Shown here: piece by piece, positions 5,563-60,017 of the stretch
Position numbering within the stretch: position 1 is the first letter of the stretch
Layout of the letters: each line of letters begins with the position of its first letter
Assembly: GCA_039800105.1 (NCBI GenBank)
Contig: JBDLRI010000025.1
Location: 2,902 to 66,901 of the forward strand
DNA length: 64,000 nucleotides
Direction: 5' to 3'
Source of the DNA: Pseudomonadota bacterium
Lineage (GTDB): Bacteria > Myxococcota_A > UBA796 > SXON01
The notes under the pieces: generated by a model
Seen by the model: the letters and a program-made list of their open reading frames with translations, nothing else
Databases searched by the model: none
Told to the model about the DNA's origin: nothing
Made by a program: the position numbers and the translations under genes

Positions 5563-5572
5563 GCCGGCGTGC

Positions 5573-22779: not shown

Positions 22780-23387
22780 ACACCGACGGCTTCTTCGACC
22801 GGGACGCGCTGGAGGTCGCGCACGACCTCATCGGCTGCGTGCTCACCCGCCACGAAGGCCTTCGCGTGCGCATCACCGAGGCGGAGGCGTACCGCTTCCC
22901 CGGCGACAGCGCCAACCACGCGCGCATGGGACTCACCCCGCGCAACGCGCCGATGTGGGGTCCTTCCGGCCATCTCTACGTCTACCTCTGCTACGGCGTG
23001 CATCCCATGCTCAACCTCGTCACCGGGCCCGGGGGTCACGCCGCGGCCGTGCTCCTGCGCGGTGGCGAGCCGATGCAGGACACGATCATGGGGCGGGGGG
23101 GCGCGCCCCCCCGCAACGCCCCCCGCCTCGACGGGCCCGGAACGCTCGCGCAGGCGCTCGGCGTCACCACGGCCCACACGGGCCTGCGGCTCGACGCCGT
23201 CTTCGCGCTCGACGCCCCCGACCGCCCGGTGACGCGGCTCGCCGGACCGCGCGTGGGAATCGACTACGCGGCCCCGGAACACCGCGACGCCCCCTGGCGC
23301 GTGGCATGCGCGTCCAGCCTCCACGTCGGACACCGGCGCACGCTCGCGCCGATCCCGGCTACCAGCTCGGCGCCGGGTTCGCGCTGA
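22770..23387 (+). CDS. mpg: DNA-3-methyladenine glycosylase (Mpg/AAG family)
   Basis: ORF 22770..23387, GTG start. FFDRDALEVAHDLIGCVL, ITEAEAY, DSANHA, HLYVYLCYGVHPMLNLV, GPGTLAQALGV, GPRVGIDYA. Repeat copy 23088-23125 lies in frame between conserved blocks. Confidence 0.88.
   Translation: MDPHTDGFFDRDALEVAHDLIGCVLTRHEGLRVRITEAEAYRFPGDSANHARMGLTPRNAPMWGPSGHLYVYLCYGVHPMLNLVTGPGGHAAAVLLRGGEPMQDTIMGRGGAPPRNAPRLDGPGTLAQALGVTTAHTGLRLDAVFALDAPDRPVTRLAGPRVGIDYAAPEHRDAPWRVACASSLHVGHRRTLAPIPATSSAPGSR
23088..23125 (-). repeat. GC-hairpin repeat copy
   Basis: atggggcggggggggcgcgcccccccgcaacgcccccc, in frame inside mpg. Confidence 0.85.
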
Positions 23388-24144
23388 TCCAGGCGTCCAT
23401 CTCGTCCGCCGCGCCGACCATGTCCTCCACGGCAAGATGCAGCGCCAGCGTCTCGGGGACGTCCGTGCCGGTGAGACGCGTCTGCGCCCAGGTGGCGTAC
23501 ATGTTCCTCGACCCGTCCCCGTGCGGGATGCTGACCCACAGGTAGTATTGCGCCAGCACGTCCAGCCAGTCGACGTTGAGCTCGGCGGCGCCCACCATCC
23601 AGTTGCGCTGCACGAGTGCCTCGCCCCCGTCGGAGAGCTCGACCCAGCGCCACTGCACCAGGTTGTGCGAGGTCACCTCCAGCGAGAGCGGCAGCGACGC
23701 GGTCACCCACGACTCGTAGGCGAAGGTCCCGCACCGGTGATCGAGGAAGCACGCCATGTCGCCCTGGTCCTCGCGCGCGTACGCGAGCACCGTGTCCGCG
23801 TCGCGCACGAGCGGATCGGTCGTGAGCTGCGACGCTGCGATGGTCGTGGGATCGTGGGGGCTCTCATGGCCGACCGCCGCGCCCACCAACCCCTCCGCGC
23901 TGCGCGTGGCGTCGTCGAGGCCGTCGAGGGTGGTCTGATCGAGCGTGCGCACCGCGTAGCCCTCGAGCGTCTCGTCCAGCCGCGTGTCCATCCACACCGC
24001 GAGGTTGTCGCCGCCCGCCGCGAGCGCCGCGGGGTCCTCGTCCATCGCGTGGGCGAAGAGGAACCCGACCAGCGCGTCGAGCTCCTGCGGCGCCTCGACG
24101 GGGCGGCTGCAGGCGAGGAGAAGCGCGAGCGCGACCATGCCCAT
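23359..24144 (-). CDS. Hypothetical lipoprotein
   Basis: ORF 23359..24144, ATG start, N-terminus MGMVALALLLAC. No family recognised. The 3' end overlaps the 3' end of mpg by 29 nt. Confidence 0.65.
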   Translation of the reverse strand: MGMVALALLLACSRPVEAPQELDALVGFLFAHAMDEDPAALAAGGDNLAVWMDTRLDETLEGYAVRTLDQTTLDGLDDATRSAEGLVGAAVGHESPHDPTTIAASQLTTDPLVRDADTVLAYAREDQGDMACFLDHRCGTFAYESWVTASLPLSLEVTSHNLVQWRWVELSDGGEALVQRNWMVGAAELNVDWLDVLAQYYLWVSIPHGDGSRNMYATWAQTRLTGTDVPETLALHLAVEDMVGAADEMDAWISANPAPSW

Positions 24145-24264
24145 GTCGTAGCCGCCTTGCGGCGCGACGCAAGGGCCGGCGGCGCGACCGCGCGCGAACG
24201 CGGGTGCGCGCGCCGGGGGCGTGGCCTACCGTGGTGCGGCCGCGCAACGCGGTAGACCCTCCGC

Positions 24265-25695
24265 ATGTCCGTCCCCCGCCCCGATCCCCGCTACCTCGCG
24301 CTCGGCGAGGGCTACGCCGACGCGGTCGCGCCCGCGCGGTTCCCCGCGCACCGCCTGCGTTGGCGCAACGACCGCGCCGCCGCCGCCGTCGGCCTCACGG
24401 GCCTCGACGACGACGCCTGGATCGACCGCTTCGCGCGCTTCGCGCCGCTGCCGGACAACCTGCCGGAGCCGCTCGCGCTGCGCTACCACGGCCACCAGTT
24501 CCGCCACTACAACCCACACCTCGGCGACGGGCGCGGCTTTCTCTACGCCCAGTTCCGGGACGACCGCGGGCGACTCCTGGACCTGGGCACGAAGGGCAGC
24601 GGCACGACCCCATGGAGCCGCGGCGGCGACGGACGGCTGACGCTCAAGGGCGCCGTGCGCGAGCTGCTCGCGAGCGAGATGCTCGAGGCGCTCGGGGTGG
24701 ACACCTGCCGCACGCTCAGCATCGTGGAGACCGGAGAGTCGCTGGATCGCCACGACGAGCCGTCCCCGACGCGCGCCGCGGTGCTGGTGCGGCTCTCGCA
24801 CAGCCACGTGCGCGTCGGCACCTTCCAGCGGCTGGCGGCGCACGGCGACCGGCAACGCATGGCGCGGCTCGTAGCGTACGTCGCGGAGCACCTGCTGCCG
24901 CACGCGACGCCCACGCCCCGGGGCATCCTCGCGGCGAGCTGCGACCGCGCCGCCTGGACCTGCGGCGCCTGGATGGCTGCCGGATTCGTGCACGGCGTGC
25001 TCAACACCGACAACCAGAACCTGACCGGCGAGAGCTTCGACTACGGCCCGTGGCGCTTCACGCCCACCTACGACCCGTCCTTCGTCGCGGCGTACTTCGA
25101 CCACGAGGGGCTCTACGCCTTCGGGCGGCAGGCGGAGGCCGTGCACTGGAACCTGCGCGCGCTGGCGCAGTCGCTCGCGTTGCTCGGGGAGCCGCTCGAC
25201 GGCGCGCTGGACGGCTTCGCGGCCGCCTTCCACGCCGGCCTGCGCACCACCTTCCTGCGACGGCTCGGGGTCGCCTCCGCCGGCGAGGCCGGTGACACCA
25301 CGCTCTGCATGCTCGGGCTGGAAGCGCTTGCGCGCACGCGGGCGCCGCTGGTCGCGTTCTTCGACGCCTGGCACGGCGGCGCCGACGCGCGGCCCGGGGA
25401 TCATCCCGACGCCGCGACGTGGGCCTCGCCGGCGTTCGACCTCTTCCGCGAAGTCCATTCCGAGTATGTTTCCGTGGCAACGCCCCCTGGCACGTCGCCG
25501 GACCTGCACATCGACACGGTGGAGGCCCTGTGGGCGCCGATCGCGGCCCACGACGACTGGGCGCCGCTCCACGCCCACGTCGCGGGGATCCGCGCCCTCG
25601 GCGCGCGGCTCGGCCCGGCCACCCCGTACGCGGGGCTGGACGAATCCGTCACGGGGGGCGTTGCGGGGGGATGTCCCCCCGCCCCAGGTGAATAG
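24265..25695 (+). CDS. selO: Protein adenylyltransferase SelO (YdiU/UPF0061)
   Basis: ORF 24265..25695. LALRYHGHQFRHYNPHLGDGRGFLY, DLGTKGSGTTPWSRGGDGRLTLKGAVRELLASE, HSHVRVGTFQ, GFVHGVLNTDN, FDYGPW. The last 14 codons derive from repeat copy 25653-25688. Confidence 0.92.
   Translation: MSVPRPDPRYLALGEGYADAVAPARFPAHRLRWRNDRAAAAVGLTGLDDDAWIDRFARFAPLPDNLPEPLALRYHGHQFRHYNPHLGDGRGFLYAQFRDDRGRLLDLGTKGSGTTPWSRGGDGRLTLKGAVRELLASEMLEALGVDTCRTLSIVETGESLDRHDEPSPTRAAVLVRLSHSHVRVGTFQRLAAHGDRQRMARLVAYVAEHLLPHATPTPRGILAASCDRAAWTCGAWMAAGFVHGVLNTDNQNLTGESFDYGPWRFTPTYDPSFVAAYFDHEGLYAFGRQAEAVHWNLRALAQSLALLGEPLDGALDGFAAAFHAGLRTTFLRRLGVASAGEAGDTTLCMLGLEALARTRAPLVAFFDAWHGGADARPGDHPDAATWASPAFDLFREVHSEYVSVATPPGTSPDLHIDTVEALWAPIAAHDDWAPLHAHVAGIRALGARLGPATPYAGLDESVTGGVAGGCPPAPGE
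25653..25688 (+). repeat. GC-hairpin repeat copy
   Basis: ggggggcgttgcggggggatgtccccccgccccagg. Forms the last codons of selO. Confidence 0.85.
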
Positions 25696-25717
25696 CCTGC
25701 GACGAGGGGAGCATGTC

Positions 25718-25924
25718 ATGCACGACCGGCTGATCGCGCTCGAGGAGAAGTTGGCCTACCTGGAGAAGTACCTCTCGGAGCTCGACGGCGTCGTCCGCGC
25801 GCTCCACCAGGAGGTCGCCGGGGTCGTGCGCGAGATGGAGCGCCTGCGCGCCGCCGCCGCCCCCGAGGAGGACGAGGAGGGCACGGTGCGCATCGGCGGG
25901 CACGAGGTCCCGCCGCACTACTGA
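25718..25924 (+). CDS. slyX: SlyX-family coiled-coil protein
   Basis: Distal 68 codons of ORF 25292..25924. ATG 25718 follows GAGGGGAG. RLIALEEKLAYLEKYLSELDGVVRALHQEV and the terminal PPHY are typical of SlyX. Confidence 0.75.
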   Translation: MHDRLIALEEKLAYLEKYLSELDGVVRALHQEVAGVVREMERLRAAAAPEEDEEGTVRIGGHEVPPHY

Positions 25925-28367: not shown

Positions 28368-28409
28368 ATGGGGGCGGAGGGGGGCAGCCCCCTCCGCAAC
28401 GCCTCCCCC
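28368..28409 (-). repeat. GC-hairpin repeat copy between convergent genes
   Basis: atgggggcggaggggggcagccccctccgcaacgcctccccc. Fills the 54-nt gap between the OYE and hsp20 stops. Possible bidirectional terminator (inference only). Confidence 0.85.
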
Positions 28410-28416
28410 GGGCGGG

Positions 28417-32793: not shown

Positions 32794-34293
32794 TCAGCCG
32801 CCCAGTCGCGCGCGCAAGGCGTGGGCGCCCGCGACCACCACGCGCTCGCCGTCGGAGACCCCGTCCAGCACGCGCACACGCGCCCCGTCCGAGGCCCCGA
32901 CGCGCACCTCGCGCAGCGCGAAGCCCTCGGGCCCGGTCTTCACCAGCACCGTGGGGACGCCGTGCCGGGGCACCACCGCGTCCACCGGGACCGCGAGGCC
33001 CTCGTCCGGCTCGCCCGACGCGATGGCGACCCGCGCGGCCGCGCCCGGCGGCAGGGGCGCGTCGCACGCCACGGTCACGGGGACGCGTCCGTTGGCGGGA
33101 TCGACCTCGTGGCCGGCGTCGAGCACCACGGCGGCGAGGACCGGCGCGTCCTCCCGCGCCACGCGGCGGACCTGCGCCGTCGCGCCGGCCCGGATCCCCG
33201 CCGCGTCACGCTCCGGAACGTGCACGCGCACCCAGCTCGCCGCCGTGCCCACGACGCGCGCGAGGGCGTCCCCGGCGCGGACGACCTCGCCGGGCTGCAC
33301 CAGCAAGGCCGCGAGCGTCCCGCCGAAGGGCACGCGCACCGGCACGCCCGAGGACGCGTCGCGCCATGCCCGCGCGGATGCGTCCGCCGTCTTCGCCGCG
33401 GCGTCGCGCCGCGCGCGCTCGCGTCCCGACACCACGCCCGTGGCACGCGCGGCACGCGCGGCGTCCTCCAGCGCCACCTCGCGCTCCACGGCGGCGCCGG
33501 TGCGCCGGGACGCCAGCTCCGCGCGCTCCAGCGGGCCGACCAGCTCGCGGACGCGGGCGAACACCTCCCCGGCACGAAGGCGCGTGCCGGGCTGGGGACG
33601 CCCACCGACCGGCTGGAACACGCCATCCGACGGCGCCCGCAGCGTCGCCGCGCCCCCCGGCGCCGGAACGACGTGCCCGACCCCCTCGAGGACCGGCGCG
33701 ACGCGCACGGCCTCCGCGCGCGCCGTGCGAAGTCCGACCAGCAGCTGGGTCTCGAGCGGCATCGCCAGCACGCCCTCCACCCGACGCGCGACCGCGGTCC
33801 GCGCCGCCCCGACCCTCACGCCGTCGACGCCGACCAGCCCCACGTGCTCCGCCTCGCGCACCGCCAGCGCCCCGGCCCAGATCCCGGCGGGCAGGGGCTC
33901 CGCGACACGCCAGGCACCGCCGGCCTCGGCCTGCAGCTCACCCTCCACCACGGAACCCTCCGCCGACCGCCACCAGGCACGTACGGTGCCCGTCTCCACG
34001 GGCGACGTCGTGTCCGCACGGACGATCCACAGGCGCGGGCGGCCCCCGTCGACACTGGCCAGGACGGCCTCGTAGCCACCCTGCGGCGCCGATTCGACGT
34101 TTGCCTGGGGCAGGGGGGGCTCCGCCCCCCCCGCAACGCCCCCCCCGTCGTGGTCCCCGTCGCCGTGGTCCTCGTCCGCGTGGTCATCCCCGCCGTGGTC
34201 ATCCCCGCCGTGGGCGAGGGCGCGCCCGACTCCCAGCACGAGCAGCAGCCCCAGCCCGGCCACGCGCATCCGACGCCCTGTTCCCATCGTCAT
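32794..34293 (-). CDS. RND efflux periplasmic adaptor (CusB/CzcB-like) with an N-terminal His/Asp-rich tract
   Basis: ORF 32794..34338. ATG 34293 overlaps the upstream stop (ATGA); ATG 34287 is the alternative. Signal/TM MRVAGLGLLLVLGVG, then HGGDDHGGDDHADEDHGDGDHD. MFP-type hairpin, lipoyl and beta-barrel regions (RAGEVFARV, PFGGTLAALLVQPGEVVRAGDALARV). Confidence 0.85.
   Translation of the reverse strand: MTMGTGRRMRVAGLGLLLVLGVGRALAHGGDDHGGDDHADEDHGDGDHDGGGVAGGAEPPLPQANVESAPQGGYEAVLASVDGGRPRLWIVRADTTSPVETGTVRAWWRSAEGSVVEGELQAEAGGAWRVAEPLPAGIWAGALAVREAEHVGLVGVDGVRVGAARTAVARRVEGVLAMPLETQLLVGLRTARAEAVRVAPVLEGVGHVVPAPGGAATLRAPSDGVFQPVGGRPQPGTRLRAGEVFARVRELVGPLERAELASRRTGAAVEREVALEDAARAARATGVVSGRERARRDAAAKTADASARAWRDASSGVPVRVPFGGTLAALLVQPGEVVRAGDALARVVGTAASWVRVHVPERDAAGIRAGATAQVRRVAREDAPVLAAVVLDAGHEVDPANGRVPVTVACDAPLPPGAAARVAIASGEPDEGLAVPVDAVVPRHGVPTVLVKTGPEGFALREVRVGASDGARVRVLDGVSDGERVVVAGAHALRARLGG
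34104..34146 (-). repeat. GC-hairpin repeat copy
   Basis: cctggggcagggggggctccgccccccccgcaacgcccccccc, in frame inside the RND adaptor just after the His/Asp tract. Confidence 0.85.
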
Positions 34294-35477
34294 TCTCCTC
34301 CGCCGGGCCCGCCCGGCCACGCCCCCGCCGCGGCCCACTGCGCCGCGCGGGCGCGCACGCGCATGGCACGCAGCGCATCCACCGTCTCGAGGGCGTCCTG
34401 CACCGCGCGACGCTGCACCAGGTACTCGGCGACGGACAGCTCACCGGCGGAAAGGCCGGCGTCCACCGCGCGCAGCGCCTCGGCGAGCCGCTCCGCATCG
34501 ATGTCCGCGAGCAGGGCCTCGGCGTCCGTCCCCTCGCGTTCCGCGCGACGCAGCTCCGCGTCGGCCGCCGCCGTGGTCTCGACGCGCGCGCGCGCGGCCG
34601 CGTCGGCGCGCGCCACCGCGGCCCCGGCACGGGCGGACGCGCCGCCGCCGAGGGGCAGCTCGAGGTTCACCACCGCGCCGACGGGCCCCTCCGCGCTTCG
34701 GCCCACGCCGAGGGAGATCTCCGAGGTTCCGAGCACCCCCGGCGTGGCCCGCGCCACCTGCGCGGCGGCCTCCGCATCGGTGCGGGCGACCCGCGCCGCC
34801 AGGGCTTCCGCGGCGGCGGGCGGGGGCGGAAGGTCCCACGGGCCGTCGGCGCCGTCCACCGGCGCGCCGCCGAGCAGCGCGCCCAGCCGCGCGGCGGCAT
34901 CCGCCTGCGCGCGCGCCGCGTCGCGGGCGTCGCGGGCGTTCGTGGTGGCGACCGCCCCGAGCAGCGCAGCCTCCACCTCGGACAGCTCGCCGTCCGGAGA
35001 GCGCGGGGGCGCGACCCGCGCGACCCGCGCCGCGCGCGCCTGCGCGCACGCCAGGTCGACCCAGGCATCCACCACGTCCACGAGCAGCCCCCCGCGCGCG
35101 GCGGCGGCGCGGGCGTCGGCCGCGGCGGCGCGCGCGCGCACCGCGGCCCGACGTGCCCCGAGGCCCGGCGCGGTCGGCAGGGCGATCGCCACGGACGAGA
35201 GGTCCGGGTCGTGGCCCGCGCGCAGCGCCGCAGGCACCGCGGCGTCGGCGCGCGCCTCCGCACGCGCGGCGAGGTCCGACGCGGCGATCGCCGCCAGCCG
35301 CGGGGACTCCGTGCGCGCCCGGGCCAGCGTGTCCTGCAACGTCAACGCGGACGCCGGTGCGCTCACGAGACCCCACGCGAGCGCCACGGCCCAGCGCAGG
35401 TGGCGGGGGGGCGTTGCGGGGGGGGCGCAGCTCCCCCCGCCCCAGGAACCATGCGAGGAGGACGGACACGCGCGCAT
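34290..35477 (-). CDS. Outer-membrane efflux factor (TolC/CzcC-like)
   Basis: Distal 395 codons of ORF 34290..36770, ATG 35477. Ala-rich coiled-coil/OMF-like repeats (LTLQDTLARARTESPRLAAIAASDLAARAE, AEYLVQRRAVQDALETVDAL). Family call rests mainly on position upstream of the adaptor and pump. Repeat copy 35405-35447 lies in the leader region. Confidence 0.7.
   Translation of the reverse strand: MRACPSSSHGSWGGGSCAPPATPPRHLRWAVALAWGLVSAPASALTLQDTLARARTESPRLAAIAASDLAARAEARADAAVPAALRAGHDPDLSSVAIALPTAPGLGARRAAVRARAAAADARAAAARGGLLVDVVDAWVDLACAQARAARVARVAPPRSPDGELSEVEAALLGAVATTNARDARDAARAQADAAARLGALLGGAPVDGADGPWDLPPPPAAAEALAARVARTDAEAAAQVARATPGVLGTSEISLGVGRSAEGPVGAVVNLELPLGGGASARAGAAVARADAAARARVETTAAADAELRRAEREGTDAEALLADIDAERLAEALRAVDAGLSAGELSVAEYLVQRRAVQDALETVDALRAMRVRARAAQWAAAGAWPGGPGGGE
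35405..35447 (+). repeat. GC-hairpin repeat copy
   Basis: gggggggcgttgcggggggggcgcagctccccccgccccagg, in the leader region of the outer-membrane factor ORF. Confidence 0.85.
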
Positions 35478-40230: not shown

Positions 40231-40943
40231 GTGCCCCCCGACCCGAGCGACTGGCGCCTCAGGGGCGGCGCGAAGGCGAGCAGCACCGTGCTGACGTAGC
40301 TGCGCTCGGTGGTGCGGCTGCCGTCATCGGGGTCCGGCACGAGGAGCGTGAGCGTGACCCGCACGGCGCGCGGCAGCCGGTTCGGCGTGTCGGCGCCCGT
40401 GGTGTCCCATTCCTTCCTCCATTCCCCGTCCTGCTGCTCGAGGTACTGGAGATCGAAGGCGCGCACCCCGTAGGCCACGGGGGCGATGTTCCCGTCCTTC
40501 TCCGGCTCCTGATCGACGCGGGGCGCCTCGCGACGGAGGAGCACGAGCGCGTCCGAGCGCGTGGGGTCATCCTCCGTCCAGTACGTGATCTCCGTCTGAT
40601 CGCCCTCCCGGGCGCCGACGATGCGGCGCTGGTGCGAGAGGGACGCCAGCCAGAGCCGATCCGCGCCGCGCTCGTCCTGCCCGACGAAGATCGTGCGGTA
40701 GGTGTTCACGGCCGCGGTGTTGGGGGTGAGGTACGCGAGCTGCAGGTCCCGGCGGATGCGGCCCATCGCGATGCGGGCCGCCTGGTTCGCCGCGTCCTCC
40801 TCCTCCAGGAGATCGCGCGTGGTGAGGGCGTTCGACAGCGTGAGAAACGTCATCAGCCCGATCAGCGCGAGCACGCTGATCGCCACCACGACCTCCACCA
40901 GCGTGAAGCCGGGCCGCGCGCGGAGGGCGCCGCGCCGCGTCAT
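40227..40943 (-). CDS. gspJ: Type II secretion system minor pseudopilin J
   Basis: Distal 238 codons of ORF 40227..41417. ATG 40943 overlaps the gspI stop (ATGA). Prepilin leader RARPG-FTLVEVVVAISVLALIG. Confidence 0.85.
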   Translation of the reverse strand: MTRRGALRARPGFTLVEVVVAISVLALIGLMTFLTLSNALTTRDLLEEEDAANQAARIAMGRIRRDLQLAYLTPNTAAVNTYRTIFVGQDERGADRLWLASLSHQRRIVGAREGDQTEITYWTEDDPTRSDALVLLRREAPRVDQEPEKDGNIAPVAYGVRAFDLQYLEQQDGEWRKEWDTTGADTPNRLPRAVRVTLTLLVPDPDDGSRTTERSYVSTVLLAFAPPLRRQSLGSGGT

Positions 40944-43947: not shown

Positions 43948-45666
<1,719 letters not shown>

Positions 45667-45667
45667 G

Positions 45668-48295
45668 TCAGGGCCCCGTGGCGGGTGCCGGCGCCGGCGA
45701 GTCGGACGGCACCGCCGGGGGAGGCGTTGCGGAGGGGGTGTCCCCCTCCGCCCCAGGCGTCACGGGAGGCGTGGAGGACGGCGCGGCCCCCTCGGCCCCG
45801 GGCAGCGTGTCGATCGCCTCCGGGGTCTGTTCGGCCGGCGAGAGCTTCGTGCGGTAGCGGCTCGGCTCGTCGGGGAAGTTCATGCTGTAGCCGAGCAGGT
45901 CCTGGAGGGCCTTCTCCTGCTGGGCGCGGCTCTTGCCGTAGAAGCGGCGCACGAACTCCTGGTGCTGGGCCCACTTGTTGCGGTAGACCTCCTCGAGATC
46001 CGCCGGCTCGTTGATGACGTGCGGCGTGAGGAAGATGAGCAGGTTCGTCTTGCGGTCCGTCTCGCGCTTGCCGCGGAAGAACATGCCGAGGAGCGGGATG
46101 TCTCCGAGCACCGGCACCTTCGTGCGCACCTTGGTGGCTGTGTTTCCGATGAGGCCGCCCATCACGACGGTCTGGTTGTCGCGCACGACCAGCACGTTCT
46201 CGGTCTGGCGCTTGCTGGTGATGAAGCCCGCGGTGGCCACGTCGAGCCCGGAGCTGTCCTCCTCGACCTCCGCGACCTCCAGGTTCATCTCCAGCGTGAC
46301 GTAGTTGCTCTCGTTGATCTGCGGGGTGACGCGGAGCGTGATGCCGACGTCCTCGCGCTGGTAGCTGATGATCGGGTTGTTGTTGTTGTCGCGGCCGGCG
46401 CTCACCGGGAACGGGACGTTGCGCCCGATGTTGATCGTCGCCTCCTCGTTGTCCACGACCATGAGCGACGGGTTCGAGAGGATGTTCACCGCGCTGTTGC
46501 TCTGCAGCGCGTTGAGCGCGATGCCGAAGGCGGGGACCGTGAGCGTGGAGGTGCCGCCGGAGCCATTCGCGACGCTCACGTCGATGCCCTCGCCGAAGAC
46601 GCCCATGGCGAGTCCGCTGAGCAGATCCGCCGGGTTGAGGCCGAAGCTGCTCGCGTTGAGCTGCATGCTGCCGTAGCCGGTCTGGAACGGCGACACGTCG
46701 TTGCTGCCCATGTGGGCGCCGATGCCGGCGTTGAACTCGTCCTCGCTGGCGACCTCGACGACCGTGGCCTCCACGAACACCTGGCGGCGCGGGATGTCGA
46801 GGCGATCGATCACGCGGCGGAGGATGCGGAAGTCCTCCGGCGCCGCGATGAGCACCAGCGAGTTGGTGTTCTCGTCCGCGGTGATACGCACGCCGCTGTC
46901 GAAGGCCGCGACGACGCCCGTGCCACCGTCCGGACCGGCCGCCCCGCCGGGCAGGCCGGGAGGCCCGCCCTTGTCGCCGCCGCCGAAGCCGCCGGCGCGG
47001 CGCGCCGTGTTTCCGCGGGAGGACTGGGCGCCGGCCTTCTTGCCGCCGGCCCGGTTGCCACCCCCGCCGCCGGTGCCGGTGCCCCCGGAGAGGCTCTGCA
47101 GCACGCCGGCCACGTCCTGGGCCTTGGCGTGCTCCAGGTAGATCACGTGGATCTGGCTGCGGCTGGCGGGATCGATGTCGACGTCGAGGGTCTTGATGAG
47201 CTCCTTGACCTTCGTCAGCGCCTCCTCGTTGGCCTGGAGGATGAGCGAGTTGGTGCGCTCGTCCGAGATGATCTTGGAGATGTAGGCGCCCTCGGAGCCG
47301 ACGTTGGTGCTCGTCGCGCCGGTGGGCGCGGGCGCCTCGTCCGCCTTCGCGCGGCGACGGGACGCGCGGTCTCCGCCCGCCCCGGTGCCCCCGGTCGACG
47401 CGGCCACGCCGTAGACCTCCTCCAGGACCTTCTCGATGTCGGCCGCCACGGCGTAGCGGATCGCGACGACCTCGAGCTTGGACTTGGGCGCCGCGACGTC
47501 GAGCTGCTTCACGATCCGGTACACGCGACGGATGTTGAAGGCCGCGTCCGTCACGATGAGCGTGTTCGTGGGCGCGTAGGTGATGACCTTGGCGTTGGGA
47601 CCGCTCAGCTCCTTCACGATGGTGCTGATCTCGTTCACCGCCACGTTGTCGAGCCCGATGATCTGCGTGACGAAGTTGTCGGTCGCCGGGATCTCGTCGC
47701 CGTCGTAGACCCGCAGCGGGGCGTTGGCGGCCTTGCCCGTCGCGACGATCTTCGTGTTCTTCCCGACGGTGACGGTCGTGAAGCCCGCCACCTCCAGCGC
47801 GCTCAGGAAGGCCTCGTAGGCCTCCGCGATCGTCACGGGCTGGTGGCTGATGATCGACATCGTGCCCTTCAGGTCGTCGGACAGGATGAAGTTCCGGCAG
47901 GTGATCTCCGCCATGTACTTGGCGACGTCCAGCAGCGGGGCGTCGGCGTAGTCCATCGTGACGCGCGTGGAGGCGTCGGCGCAGGGCAGCTTGCGGGCGT
48001 CGGGAGTCCCCGGCGCCTTCGGCGCCTCGGCGGCGGGCGCGGCCGGGGCCGCCGGCGCGGGGGCCTTGCCGGCCGGCGGTGCCCCGGGCAACACCGGAGG
48101 GGCACCGGGCAGCGGCTTCCCGCCGATGCCGGCGGGGAGGCCCGGACGGATGCGCTCCGGCGCCCCGGGCGCGGGAGGCGCCTTCGGGTCGTCGGCGTGC
48201 GCGGGGGCGACGCCCCCCACCGCGAGGGACAGCAGGACGGCGCAGGTGGCACGGACGGGGAGGAGAGTGTGCACGCGGGTTCCGGGGCGGGTCAT
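45668..48295 (-). CDS. gspD: Type II secretion system secretin D
   Basis: ORF 45668..48295. ATG overlaps the gspC stop (ATGA). Signal peptide, N0-N3-like repeats, secretin domain (VPVLGDIPLLGMFFRGKRETDRKTNLLIFLTPHVI). The Pro-rich C-terminal tail contains repeat copy 45717-45757. Confidence 0.93.
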   Translation of the reverse strand: MTRPGTRVHTLLPVRATCAVLLSLAVGGVAPAHADDPKAPPAPGAPERIRPGLPAGIGGKPLPGAPPVLPGAPPAGKAPAPAAPAAPAAEAPKAPGTPDARKLPCADASTRVTMDYADAPLLDVAKYMAEITCRNFILSDDLKGTMSIISHQPVTIAEAYEAFLSALEVAGFTTVTVGKNTKIVATGKAANAPLRVYDGDEIPATDNFVTQIIGLDNVAVNEISTIVKELSGPNAKVITYAPTNTLIVTDAAFNIRRVYRIVKQLDVAAPKSKLEVVAIRYAVAADIEKVLEEVYGVAASTGGTGAGGDRASRRRAKADEAPAPTGATSTNVGSEGAYISKIISDERTNSLILQANEEALTKVKELIKTLDVDIDPASRSQIHVIYLEHAKAQDVAGVLQSLSGGTGTGGGGGNRAGGKKAGAQSSRGNTARRAGGFGGGDKGGPPGLPGGAAGPDGGTGVVAAFDSGVRITADENTNSLVLIAAPEDFRILRRVIDRLDIPRRQVFVEATVVEVASEDEFNAGIGAHMGSNDVSPFQTGYGSMQLNASSFGLNPADLLSGLAMGVFGEGIDVSVANGSGGTSTLTVPAFGIALNALQSNSAVNILSNPSLMVVDNEEATINIGRNVPFPVSAGRDNNNNPIISYQREDVGITLRVTPQINESNYVTLEMNLEVAEVEEDSSGLDVATAGFITSKRQTENVLVVRDNQTVVMGGLIGNTATKVRTKVPVLGDIPLLGMFFRGKRETDRKTNLLIFLTPHVINEPADLEEVYRNKWAQHQEFVRRFYGKSRAQQEKALQDLLGYSMNFPDEPSRYRTKLSPAEQTPEAIDTLPGAEGAAPSSTPPVTPGAEGDTPSATPPPAVPSDSPAPAPATGP
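45717..45757 (+). repeat. GC-hairpin repeat copy
   Basis: gggggaggcgttgcggagggggtgtccccctccgccccagg, in frame in the gspD C-terminal tail. Confidence 0.9.
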
Positions 48296-51116: not shown

Positions 51117-52438
51117 TGGCCGGGCGTCGGCCGCCGCCGGGTCCCGACGCGCCGGGCGCGTGGCGACACGCCCGTCCGACGGGGGTCCAGGGGGCGGCGC
51201 CCCCTGGCGGGGCGTTGCGGGGCGGCGCCCCGCCCCAGGGAAAGCCAGCCTCCGCGCGGGACGACGGCAGGCTGCACGTGAACGCCTACAGCGAGGGGTG
51301 GCTGCGGAAGGGCTTTCCGTGGGTCTACCCCGCGGAGATCACGGCGGGCAGCGTGCGTCCGGGCCGTGCGACGCAGCTGGTGGCGCCCGGCGGCGAGGTG
51401 CTGGGCACGGCCATCGCCGACGACGGCTGGATCGCGGCGCGGCGCTTCCGCGACGATGCCGGCGACATCGACGGGGCGCTGCTGCGCGCGCGGGTGGAGG
51501 CGGCGCTCCGTCGTCGTGCGGGGCTGATCCCGCCCGACACCACCGCCTGGCGACTGGTGCATGCCGAGAACGACGACCTGCCCGGCATCCGCGTCGACGT
51601 GTGGGGCGCGCATGCGGTCGTGTCCCTCGACTCCCCCTCCCTCACGGGGCTGCTCGCGCCGCTTTGCGACGCCGTCGAGGCGGTGATCGGCCCGCGGGAG
51701 GGCATCCACCTGGCGCACCGGCCCGACCCGCGGGAGAAAGAGCGGCGGTCCTGGCCCCGCGAACCGGGCCTGCTGCGCGGGTCCGATCCCGGCGAGATCG
51801 AGGTCCTCGAGCGGGGCGTGCGGTTCCGGGTGCGCCCCGGCGATGGCCAGAAGGACGTCGGGCTCTACCCGGACATGCGCGACAACCGCGCGTGGCTGGA
51901 CCCCCACTGGCGGGGCCGCTCGCTCCTGAACCTGTTCGCGCACACCTGCGCCTTCAGCGTGTTCGCGGCGCGGGCCGGCGCCGCCTCCACCGTGTCGGTG
52001 GACCTGTCGGCGGCCTACCTCGAGCGCGGTGCCGCCAACTTCCGCCACAACGGCCTGCCCGTGCCGGAGCTGCTCGCGGAGGACTGCTTCCGCGCGCTGG
52101 ACCGCTTCCGCCGGCAGGGCCGGACCTTCGACGTGGTGCTGCTCGACCCGCCGGGACACAGCCACGGACCCGAGGGCACGTGGTCCGGGGAGCGCGACTA
52201 CGCCCGCCTCGTGCTCGGCGCGCTGCGGGTCCTGGCCCCGGGCGGGTGGCTCGTGGCGGCAAGCAACCTCGGCACCGTGAGCCCCCACCGCTTCCAGGGC
52301 ACGCTGCTCGACGGCGCCCGCCGCGCGGGACGCACGCTGCGCCTGCTGCACGACGGCGACGCCGCGCCCGACTTTCCCGCGGCGCTGGCGTTCCCCGAGG
52401 GCCGGTACCTGAAGTTCATGATTTGCGCGGTGGACTAG
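51116..52438 (+). CDS. Class I SAM-dependent rRNA methyltransferase (RlmI/RlmK-like)
   Basis: ORF 51116..52438. KGFPWVYPAEI (PUA-like start), WRLVHAENDDLPGIRVD, LNLFAHTCAFSVFAA, VVLLDPP, LVAASN. ATG 51116 shares one nt with the upstream stop. The alternative GTG 51278 would leave repeat 51187-51240 intergenic. Confidence 0.82.
   Translation: MAGRRPPPGPDAPGAWRHARPTGVQGAAPPGGALRGGAPPQGKPASARDDGRLHVNAYSEGWLRKGFPWVYPAEITAGSVRPGRATQLVAPGGEVLGTAIADDGWIAARRFRDDAGDIDGALLRARVEAALRRRAGLIPPDTTAWRLVHAENDDLPGIRVDVWGAHAVVSLDSPSLTGLLAPLCDAVEAVIGPREGIHLAHRPDPREKERRSWPREPGLLRGSDPGEIEVLERGVRFRVRPGDGQKDVGLYPDMRDNRAWLDPHWRGRSLLNLFAHTCAFSVFAARAGAASTVSVDLSAAYLERGAANFRHNGLPVPELLAEDCFRALDRFRRQGRTFDVVLLDPPGHSHGPEGTWSGERDYARLVLGALRVLAPGGWLVAASNLGTVSPHRFQGTLLDGARRAGRTLRLLHDGDAAPDFPAALAFPEGRYLKFMICAVD
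51187..51240 (+). repeat. Composite GC-hairpin repeat copy
   Basis: The near-palindrome ccagggggcggcgccccctgg is followed by cggggcgttgcggggcggcgccccgccccaggg. The block ggggcggcgcccc occurs twice. Confidence 0.75.
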
Positions 52439-52461: not shown

Positions 52462-52505
52462 CCTGGGGCGGTGGGGGGTCCACCCCCCTCCGCAACGCCT
52501 CCCCC
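52462..52505 (-). repeat. GC-hairpin repeat copy
   Basis: cctggggcggtggggggtccacccccctccgcaacgcctccccc, between the methyltransferase stop and the hydrolase core. Confidence 0.85.
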
Positions 52506-52509
52506 GGGC

Positions 52510-55032: not shown

Positions 55033-56538
55033 ATGCGAATCCTTCCTGCCCTGGCGGGCGCGGCGGCACTCGTCGCGGTGCCGGCGCACGCCACCGACAC
55101 GTGGACGAACGTACGGCCCGGCATCGACTACCTCTACCGTGAGCTGGGCCCGCCGAAACCGCAGCGGATCCACGCCGTGCGCGTCGACCTGTCGGACCCG
55201 CGGATCGGCATCCACGCCAGCGCGGACCTGCGCGGTCAGGAGTGGGCGGTCAACACCCTGGCCTTTGCGCGCAACACCGACGCCATCGTCGCCATCAACG
55301 GGGACTGGGCGTACATCGAGGGAACCGGCGACGCGTACCTGCGCCCCGCGAGCCTCGCGATCAGCGAGGGCAACCTGTGGAGCCCGCACTGGCCGTACGC
55401 CAACACCGTGGAGAGCTGGGGCTACGTCGCCTGCACGCTCGACAAGCAATGCACGCTCTCGTTCGCGCCGACGCTCGACAACCCGGGCATGGTCTTCCAT
55501 CCGCTCCAGAACCCGACCGTGTGGCCGCTCCGGTACTACAACGCAGTGGGTGCGAACGCGGTGCCGGCCCTGGTCCACGGCCAGCGCGTGGACGGGTGCT
55601 ACGACGGGCAGACGAACGCGCCCCGAAGCTCCGCGTGCACGGAGATCGACGGGACCCACCTGTGGCTCGTCGTCGTGGACGGACGCAACGCCGCCGGCGG
55701 GGAGTCCGGGATGAGCTGCGACGAGGTGCGCGATCAGCTGCTCACCCTCGGCTGCCACGAGGCGATGTTCCTGGACGGGGGCGGGAGCTCCACGCTGGTC
55801 GTGGACGACCAGGTCAAGAACACGCCGTCGGACGGTGGACTGCGCACGGTGGCCAACCACTTCGGCATCACGTGGGACGAGGTCGCCGACCCGCGGTGCC
55901 GGAAGGCCAACGGACGCTGGTGCGACGGCACCGTGATCGCAGCCTGCGCCGGAGGGCGCTACAAGGGGGACGGGGACTGCGGCTACTTCGGCGCGGGCTG
56001 CCAAGAGGACGGGGACTTCGCGTTCTGCGTGCACCCCTCGTGCCCGGACGGAAACGGCCTGCGACACAACGCGTGCCTCGACGCGACGCGCGTGGCGGGC
56101 TGCAACGACGGCCAGTACTCCGAGGGCGACTGCGGGGCCTTCGGGCTCGTCTGCGGCGGGGACCGCGGGAGCGCGCAGTGCATGGACCGCCGCTGCGCGG
56201 GGCCGAACGCCGCGCGCTGCGACGGCGCCACGCTCGTCGCGTGCACGGACGGCATCGCGACCCTGACCGACTGCGCCGCGCAGGGACTGGAATGCCGCGC
56301 GTCCGCGGCGGCGTGTGTCACGCCCGGGACGCCGGAGGACACGGCGACGTCGACCGGAACCTCCCTGGACGCGGGTGACGCGGGAACCGGGGACGACGCG
56401 TTCGACGGGACGCCCGCCGGCTTCACCGACCGCGGCTGCGCCTGCGACGCCGCCGGTGGCGTCCCGCTGCTCCCCGCGCTGCTCGCCGCGCTCGGCGCGC
56501 TGGATCGACGACGCCGGTCCGCCGACGCGGCGCGGTAG
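55033..56538 (+). CDS. Phosphodiester glycosidase (NAGPA/DUF2233-like) with Cys-rich modules and MYXO-CTERM tail
   Basis: ORF 55033..56538. Signal peptide MRILPALAGAAALVAVPAHA. AIVAINGDW, LWLVVVDGR, GMSCDEVRDQLLTLGCHEAMFLDGGGSSTLVV. About 150 aa of repeated Cys modules. Tail FTDRGCACDAAGGVPLLPALLAALGALDRRRR. Confidence 0.8.
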   Translation: MRILPALAGAAALVAVPAHATDTWTNVRPGIDYLYRELGPPKPQRIHAVRVDLSDPRIGIHASADLRGQEWAVNTLAFARNTDAIVAINGDWAYIEGTGDAYLRPASLAISEGNLWSPHWPYANTVESWGYVACTLDKQCTLSFAPTLDNPGMVFHPLQNPTVWPLRYYNAVGANAVPALVHGQRVDGCYDGQTNAPRSSACTEIDGTHLWLVVVDGRNAAGGESGMSCDEVRDQLLTLGCHEAMFLDGGGSSTLVVDDQVKNTPSDGGLRTVANHFGITWDEVADPRCRKANGRWCDGTVIAACAGGRYKGDGDCGYFGAGCQEDGDFAFCVHPSCPDGNGLRHNACLDATRVAGCNDGQYSEGDCGAFGLVCGGDRGSAQCMDRRCAGPNAARCDGATLVACTDGIATLTDCAAQGLECRASAAACVTPGTPEDTATSTGTSLDAGDAGTGDDAFDGTPAGFTDRGCACDAAGGVPLLPALLAALGALDRRRRSADAAR

Positions 56539-56553
56539 CCCACCAAGACCGGC

Positions 56554-56591
56554 GGGGGGCGTTGCGGGGGGCAGCCAGCCCCCCGCCCCAG
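56554..56591 (+). repeat. GC-hairpin repeat copy
   Basis: ggggggcgttgcggggggcagccagccccccgccccag, intergenic between the two NAGPA-like paralogs. Confidence 0.85.
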
Positions 56592-56618
56592 CCTTCCCGA
56601 CCGTGCTAGCATGCACGC

Positions 56619-58334
56619 ATGCGACCGCTCCTCGCCGCCGTTGCCACCCTGCTCGCGCTTGCCGCCCCCGCCCATGCCACCGACTACGAGCGGGTGGTCC
56701 GGCCGGGCATCACCTCGTTCAAGCGCCTGATCACCGGAAGCGAACCGCAGAACATCTACGCGGTGCGCGTGGACCTCACCGTCCCCAACATCGGACTGTA
56801 CGCCTCGGCCGACCGCCGCGGCGACGAGTGGGCCGTGGACACCCTCGACTTCGCCGAGGAGGTCGATGCCATCGCGGCGCTCAACGGCGACTGGTCGTGC
56901 ACGAGCTGCAGCGGCAACAACTACCTCAAGCCGCTGGGGCTCGCGATCAGCGACGGCGTCATGTGGCACAGCCACCGGCCGACCGATGACATCGGCACGC
57001 GTTGGGGGTACTTCGCCTGCACCATCGACAAGCGCTGCGACCTGACCCGCGCGCGCATGCTCGATGACCCGACGATGGCCACGAGCCCGCTCCGGACCCC
57101 CACGGTCTACCCGCTGCGCTACCACCAGGCGATCGGCGCCAACGGGCTGAACCTGCTCACCGACGGCGTGCGCGGGAACGGCTGCTTCGACACCTCCCAG
57201 TCCAACCCCCGCAGTGCCGCCTGCACCGACATCACGGGCACGATCCTGTGGCTCTTCGCCATCGACGGGCGCGGCGTCGGCGGCGGCACCGGCATGAGCT
57301 GCGCGGATGTCCGCAACCTTCTCCTCGACGCGCCCTTCAACTGCTGGGACGCGGTCATGCTCGACGGCGGCGGGTCCACGACCCTCGTCGTGGAGGACAC
57401 GAACACCAGCGCCTCCTGCAACCCGCGCGGCCGCAACAACCTGTGCGTGAAGAACCACCCGTCCGACGGCAGCCTCCGCAACGTGGGCAACCACATCGCC
57501 ATCACCTGGGAGGACACCATCGACGGGCGGTGTCGCCACGCCAACGGCATGTGGTGCAACAACGGCGCCCTCGAGACCTGCCAGGGCGGGCGGTTCAAGA
57601 CGTCCACCAACTGCGCGGCCGCCGGCAAGGGCTGCCAGGAGGACGGCACCTTCGCGTTCTGCGTCGACCCTCGCTGCCCCGCCGGCAACGGCCTGCGCGT
57701 CGGCGGCTGCCTCGACGCGACGCGCATCGCCAGCTGCAACGACGGCGTGTACGCCGAGGGCGACTGCGCCGGTTTCGGCCTCGTGTGCGGCGGCACCCCC
57801 GGCGCGGCGCAGTGCATGGACGCGCGCTGCGGCATTCCCGAGGGCGGCGCGTGCGTGGGCAGCGTGTGGACCCGCTGCAGCGCGGGCACCTACGTCGAGG
57901 CCGTGGATTGCGCGTCCTCCGGCCTGGTGTGCGACAACGGCGCGGGCTGCGTGACCCCGAACAGCGGCGGCGGCGGGTCGGGCACCGGCACCAGCGGCGG
58001 CGGCACCGGCACCGGCGGCACGAGCGGCGGCGGCACCGGCACCGGCGGCACGAGCGGCGGCACCGGCACCGGCGGCAACCACGGCGGCGGTGCCGGCAGC
58101 GGCGGGGATGACACCCACGCCACCGGGTTCGATGGTGGGTTCGGCGACTCCGGCCTCGAGGGCGCGCACGCATTCACCGATCGCGGCATTTCCTGCGGCT
58201 GCGCGTCGCACGCCGGCGGGACTCCGTCGGTACCGGCGTTGCTGGGACTGATCGTCCTCGCCGGTGCGCGGCGGCGTCCCGACGGCCAGACCCGTGACCG
58301 GGCGCGGCTGGCTCCCCGGACGATGCGCGCCTAG
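56619..58334 (+). CDS. Phosphodiester glycosidase (NAGPA/DUF2233-like) paralog with Cys-rich modules, Gly/Thr repeat and MYXO-CTERM tail
   Basis: ORF 56619..58334. Collinear with the previous gene (AIAALNGDW, LWLFAIDGR, GMSCADVRNLLLDAPFNCWDAVMLDGGGSTTLVV). Has a GGGTGTGGTSG repeat. Tail FTDRGISCGCASHAGGTPSVPALLGLIVLAGARRR. Confidence 0.8.
   Translation: MRPLLAAVATLLALAAPAHATDYERVVRPGITSFKRLITGSEPQNIYAVRVDLTVPNIGLYASADRRGDEWAVDTLDFAEEVDAIAALNGDWSCTSCSGNNYLKPLGLAISDGVMWHSHRPTDDIGTRWGYFACTIDKRCDLTRARMLDDPTMATSPLRTPTVYPLRYHQAIGANGLNLLTDGVRGNGCFDTSQSNPRSAACTDITGTILWLFAIDGRGVGGGTGMSCADVRNLLLDAPFNCWDAVMLDGGGSTTLVVEDTNTSASCNPRGRNNLCVKNHPSDGSLRNVGNHIAITWEDTIDGRCRHANGMWCNNGALETCQGGRFKTSTNCAAAGKGCQEDGTFAFCVDPRCPAGNGLRVGGCLDATRIASCNDGVYAEGDCAGFGLVCGGTPGAAQCMDARCGIPEGGACVGSVWTRCSAGTYVEAVDCASSGLVCDNGAGCVTPNSGGGGSGTGTSGGGTGTGGTSGGGTGTGGTSGGTGTGGNHGGGAGSGGDDTHATGFDGGFGDSGLEGAHAFTDRGISCGCASHAGGTPSVPALLGLIVLAGARRRPDGQTRDRARLAPRTMRA
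57965..58100 (+). repeat. Tandem ~30-bp coding repeat (Gly/Thr/Ser linker)
   Basis: The unit agcggcggcggcaccggcaccggcggcacg occurs at 57993-58022 and 58023-58052, followed by a shortened third unit. It encodes SGGGTGTGGT repeats in the second NAGPA-like protein. Confidence 0.8.
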
Positions 58335-59252: not shown

Positions 59253-59289
59253 CCTGGGGCGGGGCCTCGGGCCGGCCCCGCAACGCCCC
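59253..59289 (-). repeat. GC-hairpin repeat copy between convergent genes
   Basis: cctggggcggggcctcgggccggccccgcaacgcccc, between the PPIase stop and the methyltransferase stop. Confidence 0.8.
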
Positions 59290-59294
59290 GGCCC

Positions 59295-60017
59295 TCACGG
59301 GAACGGGGCGACCTCCGCGACGATGACCCAGTCCTCGCCCCACACCTGCGGCCCGATCTCCAGCGCACGGGCGCGGACGTCCTCGATGGAGGCCTCCATC
59401 GCCGCCGCCAGCGCCGGGTCTCGAAACCACTTCAACTTGGCCCGCGCCACGTCCAGCTGCCCGTTCACGAAGCGCGCGCCGATTCGGTTGGGGAACCGCG
59501 CGACGTCGCACACGCGGTACCCGGCCTGCGCAAGCCAGGTCTCGATCGTCGACGCCGGATACTCGCGGTACGTCCGGTGCCCGGCCAGGAGGATGCAGGC
59601 GTCCCGCATGCGGCAGACCTCGTCGAGCACGCTGCCGTCGCGCGGCTGCGGCTCCAGCCCCACGAGGTAGACCCGTCCGCCACAGTGCGGACGCAGCCGC
59701 CGGAGGAAGTCGTACTGGAAATACGGCGCGTGCCCGTCGATCGCCCCGATGACATAGTCCACCAGCACCTGGTCGAACACCTCGCCGTAGAGCAGCGCCG
59801 GGTCGGTCCATTGACCGATCACGAGCCGCGCATCCACACCGAGGGCGCGCAGACCCTCGATCCGCCACGTCTCCACCGTCACGGCCGTCCGGGACGCGGC
59901 CGGGAGCGTGCCCAGCCACGACAGGCTGTGGTCGCCGGTGCCGGCGTCCAGCACGCTGCCCCAGGCCGGGCCATTGGCGCGCTCGATGTACGTGAAGAGC
60001 GCGTCCTCGCGCCTCAA
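59295..60017 (-). CDS. Class I SAM-dependent methyltransferase
   Basis: Distal part of ORF 59295..60065. Motif I-like VLDAGTGDHS. Start uncertain: TTG 60017 overlaps the tyrS stop. Confidence 0.6.
   Translation of the reverse strand: MRREDALFTYIERANGPAWGSVLDAGTGDHSLSWLGTLPAASRTAVTVETWRIEGLRALGVDARLVIGQWTDPALLYGEVFDQVLVDYVIGAIDGHAPYFQYDFLRRLRPHCGGRVYLVGLEPQPRDGSVLDEVCRMRDACILLAGHRTYREYPASTIETWLAQAGYRVCDVARFPNRIGARFVNGQLDVARAKLKWFRDPALAAAMEASIEDVRARALEIGPQVWGEDWVIVAEVAPFP

Follow-up and report, generated by a model that had tools for sequence, protein, structure and literature searches.

The type II secretion gene gspD, which encodes the outer-membrane secretin, ends in a proline-rich tail that contains a GC-rich sequence of about 40 nt, and the same sequence recurs near the end of an S8 serine protease gene on the same stretch of DNA, a 64,000-nt segment of contig JBDLRI010000025.1 (assembly GCA_039800105.1) that we call the window. 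The 39-mer GGGGGAGGCGTTGCGGAGGGGGTGTCCCCCTCCGCCCCA matches the + strand exactly at 19042–19080 and 45717–45755, and a third copy at 1266–1304 carries 3 mismatches; the GC content of the window is 74%, and shuffles contain 0 matches to the 39-mer, placing the exact duplicate far above chance. Read on the minus strand, this sequence encodes PGAEGDTPSATPPP near the end of GspD, whereas the S8 protease tail has WGGGGHPLRNASP, which bears out the proposal of a first-pass annotation that one identical DNA element is translated in two different frames in these proteins. Our analysis indicates that the sequence most probably belongs to a REP-like family of DNA repeats, non-autonomous and present in many copies in an uncultured bacterium of high GC content, in which copies inside coding sequences (CDSs) are tolerated and the resulting peptides are by-products.

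On the C-rich strand the element consists, in order, of (C/T)TGGG, a hairpin of the form GCGG-X, a 3–5-nt loop and X′-CCGC, the dinucleotide AA, and a tail CGCC-X″; it is GC-rich and about 40 nt long, with a hairpin stem of 10–11 bp. Within the 64 kb of the window the element occurs 15 times, in either orientation and about once per 4 kb, and searches with the core CCGCAACGCC, with a regular expression and with a profile hidden Markov model each recover the same 15. A stem-loop with these stem and loop lengths is present in 15 of 15 window copies, and the search that recovered them did not ask for a hairpin; the 8 different stems among them are all self-complementary. An exact-pattern scan of metagenome contigs added at least 120 further loci, and in the larger sample, made up of the window and the metagenome loci among the matches listed, we count 180 copies in 788 kb. 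Stem changes are compensatory, with the closing pair changed from G–C to A–T on both sides in 10 copies, and a 10-bp DNA hairpin has a predicted stability of about −13 kcal/mol. The version found in GspD and the S8 protease, the 'ACA-loop' subtype, occurs in 11 identical copies at unrelated loci of this sample, and a second version in 17 identical copies, again all at unrelated loci. An invariant flank, AACG on the C-rich strand and CGTT on the G-rich strand, is present in 179 of 180 copies; flank profiles add a weak 5′ consensus, GATTCyTGGG, and define the ends of the element only approximately.

Rfam searches at gathering and permissive thresholds gave no match at the element, the sole Rfam match in the window being a tRNA gene at 12505–12576 on the minus strand. 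BLAST against plasmids and phages and a pattern scan of viral contigs likewise gave no match to the element, and a literature search with the core sequence returned unrelated primer matches only. A looser scan of GTDB genome contigs with the pattern GGGGCGGN{8,34}CCGCAACGCC was rejected as a guide to distribution, as its 119 matches are mostly single chance matches in unrelated high-GC genomes; real copies appear there only in the metagenome-assembled genomes (MAGs) CAYWGD01, JAUXTN01 and possibly JAUXQH01. MAGs that carry the repeat family have a GC content of 72–75%. Their NCBI titles (L021, L059, L088, L091, L106 = CAYWGD01, and the label of protein P0001) read 'uncultured Enterobacteriaceae bacterium' or 'Pseudomonadota bacterium'; the closest named homologs of the window proteins lie in Myxococcota, and MYXO-CTERM-like tails are present. 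These taxonomic labels look wrong, 'Enterobacteriaceae' being implausible.

Past the hairpin comes a segment that mirrors the 3′ arm (CCCCCTCCGC AA CGCCTCCCCC is an example) and is equivalently the parallel complement of the 5′ arm. Among 157 distinct copies the tail matches the stem at 893 of 983 informative positions, against 758 ± 9 with permuted tails (maximum 788). At stem position 5 we observe the triples A–T/T (116 copies), G–C/C (39) and A–T/A (8), and A–T/C and G–C/T in none. Where the A of the stem is shifted by one position, as in one subfamily, the T of the tail is shifted likewise (GCGGGAGGGG with CGCCCTCCCC), and short variants also co-vary between stem and tail (GCGGGGCC with CGCCCCGG, GCGGGGGC with CGCCCCCG and GCGGAGGGC with CGCCTCCCG). 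The change of the closing pair from G–C to A–T leaves the tail unchanged, and the coupled region therefore begins a few pairs into the stem.

Polymerase copying yields direct or inverted repeats, not mirror repeats, and a direct-repeat tail would pair with the 5′ arm better than the observed tail does. The order of purine block, loop, pyrimidine block, linker and Hoogsteen block is that of an intrastrand triplex: in the class scheme of Holder et al. 2015, which provides for stems of 6–15 nt and loops of 1–6 nt, GGGGGAGG-CGTTGC-GGAGGGGG-TGT-CCCCCTCC has the block layout of class I, and of class III on the complement. The triplet rules (G·G–C and A/T·A–T) are kept in the third block as the duplex varies, over few independent events, and the T-to-A changes seen in tails are permitted by the purine-motif rule A(T)·A–T. 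Two other structures were considered and rejected. An alternative hairpin of tail and 5′ arm fails because antiparallel pairing with a mirror tail always leaves an A·C mismatch and a G·T wobble, and a G-quadruplex or i-motif would not require the A/T and GGCC/CCGG covariation. The folding tools that we used model Watson–Crick and wobble pairs only.

Two points speak against a triplex: the length of the tail run tracks that of the stem run loosely (rho 0.34), and part of the tail–stem covariation could be inheritance within a few subfamilies. From covariation and layout we tentatively propose that the element may form a triple helix within one strand, of class I (purine motif) if that strand is the G-rich one and of class III if it is the C-rich one. 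The broader idea that the family is held together by selection for this triple helix as its functional or recognised form, and is also a major source of the disordered linkers and tails found in the proteins of a whole lineage, we consider rather unlikely. If true, the three-way covariation of 5′ arm, 3′ arm and mirror tail would provide comparative, in-genome evidence for a triplex beyond the hairpin.

Element copies lie preferentially around gene ends. The coding phase switches across nearly every window copy, and many window copies begin 2–55 nt past a stop codon or occupy the space that separates convergent stops. In the larger sample, intergenic copies lie at a median of 27 nt past the 3′ end of the neighbouring gene, with an orientation bias of 55:28 relative to that gene. 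Among the copies that overlap an open reading frame (ORF), 27 lie in 3′ tails and another 22 are internal, flanked on either side by coding sequence of a single frame. Inside the window, 6–7 of 15 copies lie within ORFs and are probably translated, in GspD, the S8 protease, SelO, the 3-methyladenine DNA glycosylase MPG, a HlyD/CusB-like adaptor, a MoxR ATPase and probably an M19 dipeptidase. Across the sample, genic copies are found in tails, in loops and in linkers between domains, in proteins unrelated to one another. For several of them Pfam confirms that a real protein is interrupted: between the PDZ domain and the PD40 repeats in an M28 peptidase, between the AAA lid and the helix-turn-helix domain (HTH_8) of an NtrC-type activator, between the two GT4 domains (GT4-N and GT4-C) of a glycosyltransferase and after a Ser/Thr kinase domain, and also within the envelopes of Pyr_redox_2, TamB, aldehyde dehydrogenase (Aldedh) and MPG.

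These observations suggest a model in which the element would spread and persist at the level of nucleic acid, settling mostly just downstream of stop codons. Copies that keep the frame in disordered tails, linkers and surface loops would be tolerated and translated, the recurring peptides would be by-products, and Arg/Cys-rich frames would be purged. Mobilisation by an enzyme that acts on single-stranded hairpin DNA is inferred by analogy with REP/RAYT systems.

In S8 orthologs with 81% protein identity the element is identical at 45 of 45 positions, and the aligned 3′-end DNA including the element averages 90% column identity. The copy at 1267 differs from that of its ortholog on L135 in the loop alone, and the upstream intergenic flank is far more diverged; at diverged orthologous sites in general, arms and tail are unchanged and the loop varies. 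A different pattern is seen in strain L243 (JGI 3300043427 contig), which is 99.7% identical to window positions 18770–25720, with 5 single-nucleotide polymorphisms (SNPs) and 1 indel over 6,960 nt. Two of the 5 SNPs (19066 and 19072) fall inside the S8 copy, two more (23143 and 23152) just after the MPG copy, and the sole indel, inside the MPG copy (23106–23120), removes 15 nt and keeps the frame. This pattern would fit elements that are mutation or conversion hotspots, with a hypermutable or converting non-B structure as at the TM_ECO loci of Escherichia coli, and the differences may also be assembly errors at G-runs.

Several results weigh against the model of a mobile, tolerated DNA repeat. 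A crude regular expression (HUH...Y..NP) for a RAYT/IS200-like transposase found no match over about 790 kb. Among the loci only filled–filled site pairs were found and no clean empty site, and the flank profiles show no target-site duplication; spread may therefore be by transposition or by conversion. The two L243 SNPs inside the S8 copy are a misfit with simple purifying selection, and the MPG loop that carries a copy is no longer than in homologs, which resembles a replacement or patch rather than a simple insertion. Finally, the division of the 180 copies into 95 intergenic and 85 genic is rough, as gene calls at the metagenome loci come from our own GC-phase and ORF-based caller, which is crude and may under- or overestimate the fraction inside CDSs.

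Some of these results could be accommodated by spread without a transposase, through gene conversion, or through template switching where short homologies occur, with the element's own non-B structure as the driving force. The MPG copy replaces a loop of equal length, and in the homologs P0245, P0250 and P0257 this loop reads R-R-N-G-L/I-D, which, judged from the peptides alone, could come from CGC-AAC-like DNA resembling the core. The element is identical in 81%-identical orthologs yet altered in a 99.7% strain, neither a target-site duplication (flank profiles) nor a transposase (the regular expression over about 790 kb) was found, and TM_ECO loci are rearrangement hotspots (PMC4666352). However, identical copies sit at many loci with unrelated flanks, as after bursts of transposition, the weak 5′ consensus GATTCyTGGG reaches past any obvious target homology, and conversion tracts are without direct evidence. 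We consider this route improbable.

The placement of copies also raises the possibility of a signal that acts in the transcript, as a terminator lacking a U-tract, a barrier to 3′ exonucleases or an mRNA-stabilising RNA triple helix, with CDS copies being accidental. Such a role would agree with the short distance of intergenic copies from stop codons, with the predicted stable GC-rich hairpin and with the orientation bias, which is similar in CDS copies (34:10); moreover, the favoured orientation gives R-Y-Y (class III) in mRNA, the sole triplex type reported in RNA (PMC4666352). Against this, one third of copies are oppositely oriented, and copies lie within operons and CDSs, including one 47 nt before the stop of gspD, which abuts gspE, where a terminator would be harmful. 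Runs of C+·G–C triples are unfavourable at neutral pH. T-runs are absent, a scan for terminators and promoters was negative at the elements, no Rfam family matches, and the PIT elements of E. coli are without terminator or promoter activity (PMC4666352). A transcript-level signal thus seems to us a little less probable still than spread by conversion.

To examine the frames in use, we read the conserved core in 44 high-confidence in-CDS copies. Copies in the same orientation as the gene are read as SATPP (17), RNA(S/T)P (16) or PQRLP (1), with chi-square p = 0.0008 for this distribution, and those in the opposite orientation as GVA(E/G)G (6), EALRR (4) or RRCGG (0). The Arg/Cys-rich reading is thus nearly absent in each orientation (1/34 and 0/10), a partial bias that fits purifying selection against disruptive peptides, a filter for tolerance, and not selection for a peptide. 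A strong frame bias, which the first-pass annotation had named as evidence for a selected peptide, is not seen: SATPP and RNA(S/T)P are about equally frequent and no frame dominates. Of 124 distinct copies, 109 are free of stop codons in every one of the six frames, compared with 51% of random 42-mers from the window. The other 15 are closed mainly because of a subfamily in which the closing-pair change (ACGG...CCGT; for example L129:6447, L162:1060 and L216:976) creates GTAACG and hence a TAA stop in one frame. Copies without stops in any frame can therefore be tolerated and translated where they preserve the frame in disordered tails, linkers and surface loops.

These data support the earlier claim that selection or spread acts on the nucleotide element and not on a peptide motif: copies occur in both orientations, about half are intergenic, identical copies stand at unrelated loci, the element is missing from the gspD ortholog L002, and the 44 copies between them show no fewer than four of the six readings that the element allows. 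The recurring PLRNASP and PSATPPP strings can likewise be understood as by-products of the DNA element, as first suggested. Of the other readings quoted at that time, those at the SelO C terminus (GGVAGGCPPAPGE) and in the HlyD-type (RND) adaptor, whose N-terminal region holds DGGGVAGGAEPPLPQ after a signal peptide, stand, whereas the copy assigned to a transglutaminase leader is probably untranslated. The proposed link with secretion turns out to be coincidental, as copies also occur in a DNA glycosylase, in SelO and MoxR, in a regulator of the NtrC type, in a kinase and in a glycosyltransferase.

A selected peptide module, such as a Pro/Gly-rich linker or a sorting tag of secreted proteins whose DNA identity reflects recent duplication of a coding cassette, is largely refuted by this census, and we regard it as highly improbable. 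Many copies do lie in tails or linkers of exported proteins (GspD, the S8 protease with its MYXO-CTERM-like end, the lipoprotein M19 and the HlyD adaptor), one frame is avoided in each orientation, and the GspD tail contains two tandem copies in the same frame. But GspD and the S8 protease use different frames of one identical DNA sequence, the two main readings are similar in frequency and both orientations are in use, about half of the copies are intergenic, cytoplasmic enzymes and regulators are among the hosts, and at orthologous sites the loop varies and arms and tail stay fixed regardless of codon position.

Homology supports the coding status of both original tails. The gspD ORF matches TIGR02517 (E = 4e-158, residues 115–770 of 875) and is identical to the deposited 875-aa protein P0001; its minus-strand end reads TPGAEGDTPSATPPPAVPSDSPAPAPATGP and then stops. 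All GspD homologs have a hypervariable Pro/Ala/Thr/Glu-rich tail of similar length, which follows a conserved PSxYRxK motif and ends at gspE. In L002, the closest ortholog without the element (89% identity, in a local BLASTP match spanning 41% of the query), a 45-nt gap falls exactly at the element site and the stop/start junction with gspE is the same. In L001, a 97%-identical strain, the GspD element is unchanged and the surrounding tail differs at many positions. Immediately upstream of the intact copy, a decayed tandem copy matches the element at 32 of 40 ungapped positions, a score reached by 0.7% of random window segments, and has diverged further in L001; with a decayed copy beside an intact one in the same frame, part of the GspD tail has therefore been built from the repeat. 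L002 in turn has a family copy (L002:7784–7824) in a spacer of about 128 nt between two pseudopilin genes, the gspI–J junction, and in the window those two genes overlap by 4 nt (40940–40943) with no copy, so that the gsp operons differ in element presence in both directions. We considered the L002 gspI–J junction as an empty site and rejected it as not clean.

The S8 peptidase ORF ends with GCACATSADWGGGGHPLRNASPAVVALLAVRCARRRRA and a stop codon. S8 homologs end in a MYXO-CTERM-like arrangement of GC.C, a short spacer, a hydrophobic stretch and RRRR, and some of them are annotated at source under that name. The element occupies the spacer of this tail, and the hydrophobic/RRRR end continues in frame; NCBIfam did not call MYXO-CTERM on the S8 tail, and the assignment comes from the tails and names of homologs. 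The gene after the S8 protease most likely starts at GTG 19015, which gives MRAPAARVIALLLLGAAWG, a signal-peptide-like N terminus; it overlaps the last 25 nt of the S8 protease, so that the DNA for this signal peptide, read in another frame, encodes the RRRR end of the protease.

Indels at or near in-CDS copies (45, 15 and 9 nt) are all multiples of three, and ORF structure and homology together suggest that in-CDS copies are translated. The first-pass annotation had named termination of the two CDSs before the element as a second finding that would overturn its claim; no in-frame stop lies upstream of either copy, and the CDSs therefore cannot terminate before it. That both genes do end early, the long ORFs being read-through in a 74% GC genome, is extremely improbable: stop codons are rare and spurious long ORFs plentiful in this genome, and the S8 tail overlaps the start of the next gene, but in addition to the missing stops and the frame-keeping indels, S8 homologs need the hydrophobic stretch and RRRR after the element to complete their tails, and all GspD homologs have Pro-rich tails of similar length up to gspE.

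Table 1 Copies of the element in the window, the genes that host the two identical copies, and gspE
Feature	Positions	Strand	Context and reading
Element	1267–1306	+	Between aspS and M19 dipeptidase; probably a translated linker after a lipoprotein signal peptide, VTAALALWFLAC / AGSAGPASGAEGVPPSATPPP
Element	5531–5567	+	Fills gap between two minus-strand genes; few nt from stop codon 5573–5575
Element	8700–8743	+	N terminus of MoxR AAA ATPase, VSLPDAGAEGVGHPLRNASPAATVEAL
Element	10558–10600	-	7 nt past upstream stop, about 30 nt before start of TgpA transglutaminase; probably untranslated
S8 serine protease ORF	18991–20640	-	Deposited version 482 aa, with later start
Element, sequence-identical to GspD copy	19040–19079	-	S8 protease, between GC.C motif and hydrophobic/RRRR end, WGGGGHPLRNASP
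Element	23090–23128	+	Variable loop of 3-methyladenine DNA glycosylase (MPG), rare third frame, MGRGGAPPRNAPRL
Element, opposite orientation	25649–25685	-	Last ~13 residues of SelO, TGGVAGGCPPAPGE, then stop
Element	28371–28411	+	Fills space between convergent stop codons 28362 and 28417
Element	34107–34148	+	Disordered N-terminal region of HlyD/CusB-like adaptor, after signal peptide and His/Asp-rich stretch, GGGVAGGAEPPLPQ
Element	35402–35443	-	Intergenic, between two minus-strand genes
gspE, type II secretion ATPase	43948–45666	-	Directly downstream of gspD; from gene order on ortholog contigs and Pfam
gspD, secretin, 875 aa	45668–48295	-	Stop 1 nt before GTG start of gspE
Element, ACA-loop subtype	45715–45754	-	Pro-rich C-terminal tail of GspD, 47 nt before stop, GAEGDTPSATPPP; absent in L002, identical in L001
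Decayed tandem copy	45764–45803	-	Same frame in GspD tail, PGAEGAAPSSTPP; hairpin destroyed
Element, short-stem variant	51203–51236	-	Intergenic
Element	52465–52507	+	Intergenic, 27 nt past stop codon
Element	56550–56589	-	Intergenic, begins 11 nt past stop codon
Element, GGCC/CCGG stem-and-tail variant	59256–59295	+	Between convergent genes, abuts stop 59295–59297

The M19 dipeptidase probably begins at GTG 1207, overlapping the aspS stop (GTGA), and would then have VTAALALWFLAC, a signal of the lipoprotein type; were the start placed further on, as by the GC-phase caller at 1327, both the signal peptide and the element-derived linker would be lost. In MoxR there is no in-frame start codon between the element and the conserved helix. 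The HlyD/CusB-like adaptor (33880–34269, minus strand) begins with a signal peptide and then a His/Asp-rich stretch, HGGDDHGGDDHADEDHGDGDHD, which by analogy with heavy-metal efflux adaptors suggests metal binding. Elsewhere in the window, two adjacent paralogous genes at 55078–58334 are about 71% identical at the DNA level in several segments (55813–56112 and 57447–57746 form one such pair), and the second of them contains four tandem Gly-rich repeats of about 30 nt (57986–58102).

Among known repeats, REPs, which are imperfect palindromes of 20–40 bp, offer a close parallel. Like them, the element is a short (about 40 nt), GC-rich, high-copy hairpin with subfamilies defined by stem and loop, lies mostly beside gene ends where it at times supplies or abuts stop codons, and in other cases falls wholly inside ORFs, at either terminus or in linkers. 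REPs of the GTAG- and CGTC-tagged types that fall wholly within ORFs have been documented in a number of species, frequently in linkers or at protein termini (Di Nocera et al. 2013, PMC3733652), and CGTC-type REPs lack a dedicated transposase (PMC3733652). The G-rich strand of the element has a CGTT head, a stem-loop and a CCCA tail, to be compared with the CGTC head and CCA tail of CGTC REPs. However, CGTT is one base from CGTC and the defining GTAG or CGTC tetranucleotide is absent, the 10–11-bp stem begins with G–C pairs rather than the A–T of REPs, no dimers or BIME-like clusters were seen, and REPs have no counterpart of the additional 8–10-nt mirror-symmetric tail. MITEs such as ERIC, Correia/NEMIS and QMITE (PMC10969869) are also small non-autonomous repeats that can sit in genes and add peptide segments, but they span 70–300 bp and have terminal inverted repeats and target-site duplications, neither of which was found for the element.

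The RPEs of Rickettsia are the classic case of palindromic insertions that keep the reading frame (Ogata et al. 2000, reviewed in PMC10969869 and PMC3733652). The element resembles them in being palindromic and in-frame in many unrelated genes, at sites compatible with the fold of proteins that apparently still function. RPEs differ in measuring about 100–150 bp and encoding one conserved peptide per family, compared with about 40 nt and at least four frames here, and in their host, Rickettsia being AT-rich and obligately intracellular and the present host belonging to an unrelated lineage with 74% GC. The element thus adds a further case, outside Rickettsia and much smaller, of a DNA repeat that adds in-frame segments to functional proteins, with a frame filter that can be measured. 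PSATPPP, PLRNASP and GGVAEGG strings in predicted proteins of this lineage would be repeat-derived, which matters for annotation, domain calling and homology searches with these MAGs.

In layout the element is close to the BoxC/PIT/TM_ECO sequences, which are about 37 nt long, form triplexes in vitro, always lie between genes and occur 23 times in the K-12 strain of E. coli (Hoyne et al. 2000; Holder et al. 2015, PMC4666352); TM_ECO lacks terminator and promoter activity and is tied to local genome instability (PMC4666352). Both are G/C-rich sequences of about 37–40 nt with three 8–9-nt blocks, one C-rich and two G-rich, separated by loops of 3–6 nt, and in both the copies are highly conserved, their loci are hotspots of strain variation and a terminator or promoter signature is absent. 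Block order differs, being G-G-C (class I/III) in the element and C-G-G (class II) in TM_ECO, and the sequences are unrelated, TM_ECO having the form CCCTCNCCC N3–6 GGGNGAGGG N3 GGGNGAGGG, so that the element is an analogue and not a family member. It is also far denser, at about one copy per 4 kb, and often translated, and in vitro triplex formation is known for TM_ECO only. The mirror-tail covariation provides a natural test set for a question that the E. coli BoxC/PIT work left open, whether intrastrand triplexes are real and selected in bacteria. As defining features of REPs of the GTAG/CGTC type, of RPEs and of TM_ECO were looked for and not found, the element belongs to none of these families; it is a new family of REP-like repeats whose tail is of the triplex type and whose insertions in coding sequence recall RPEs.

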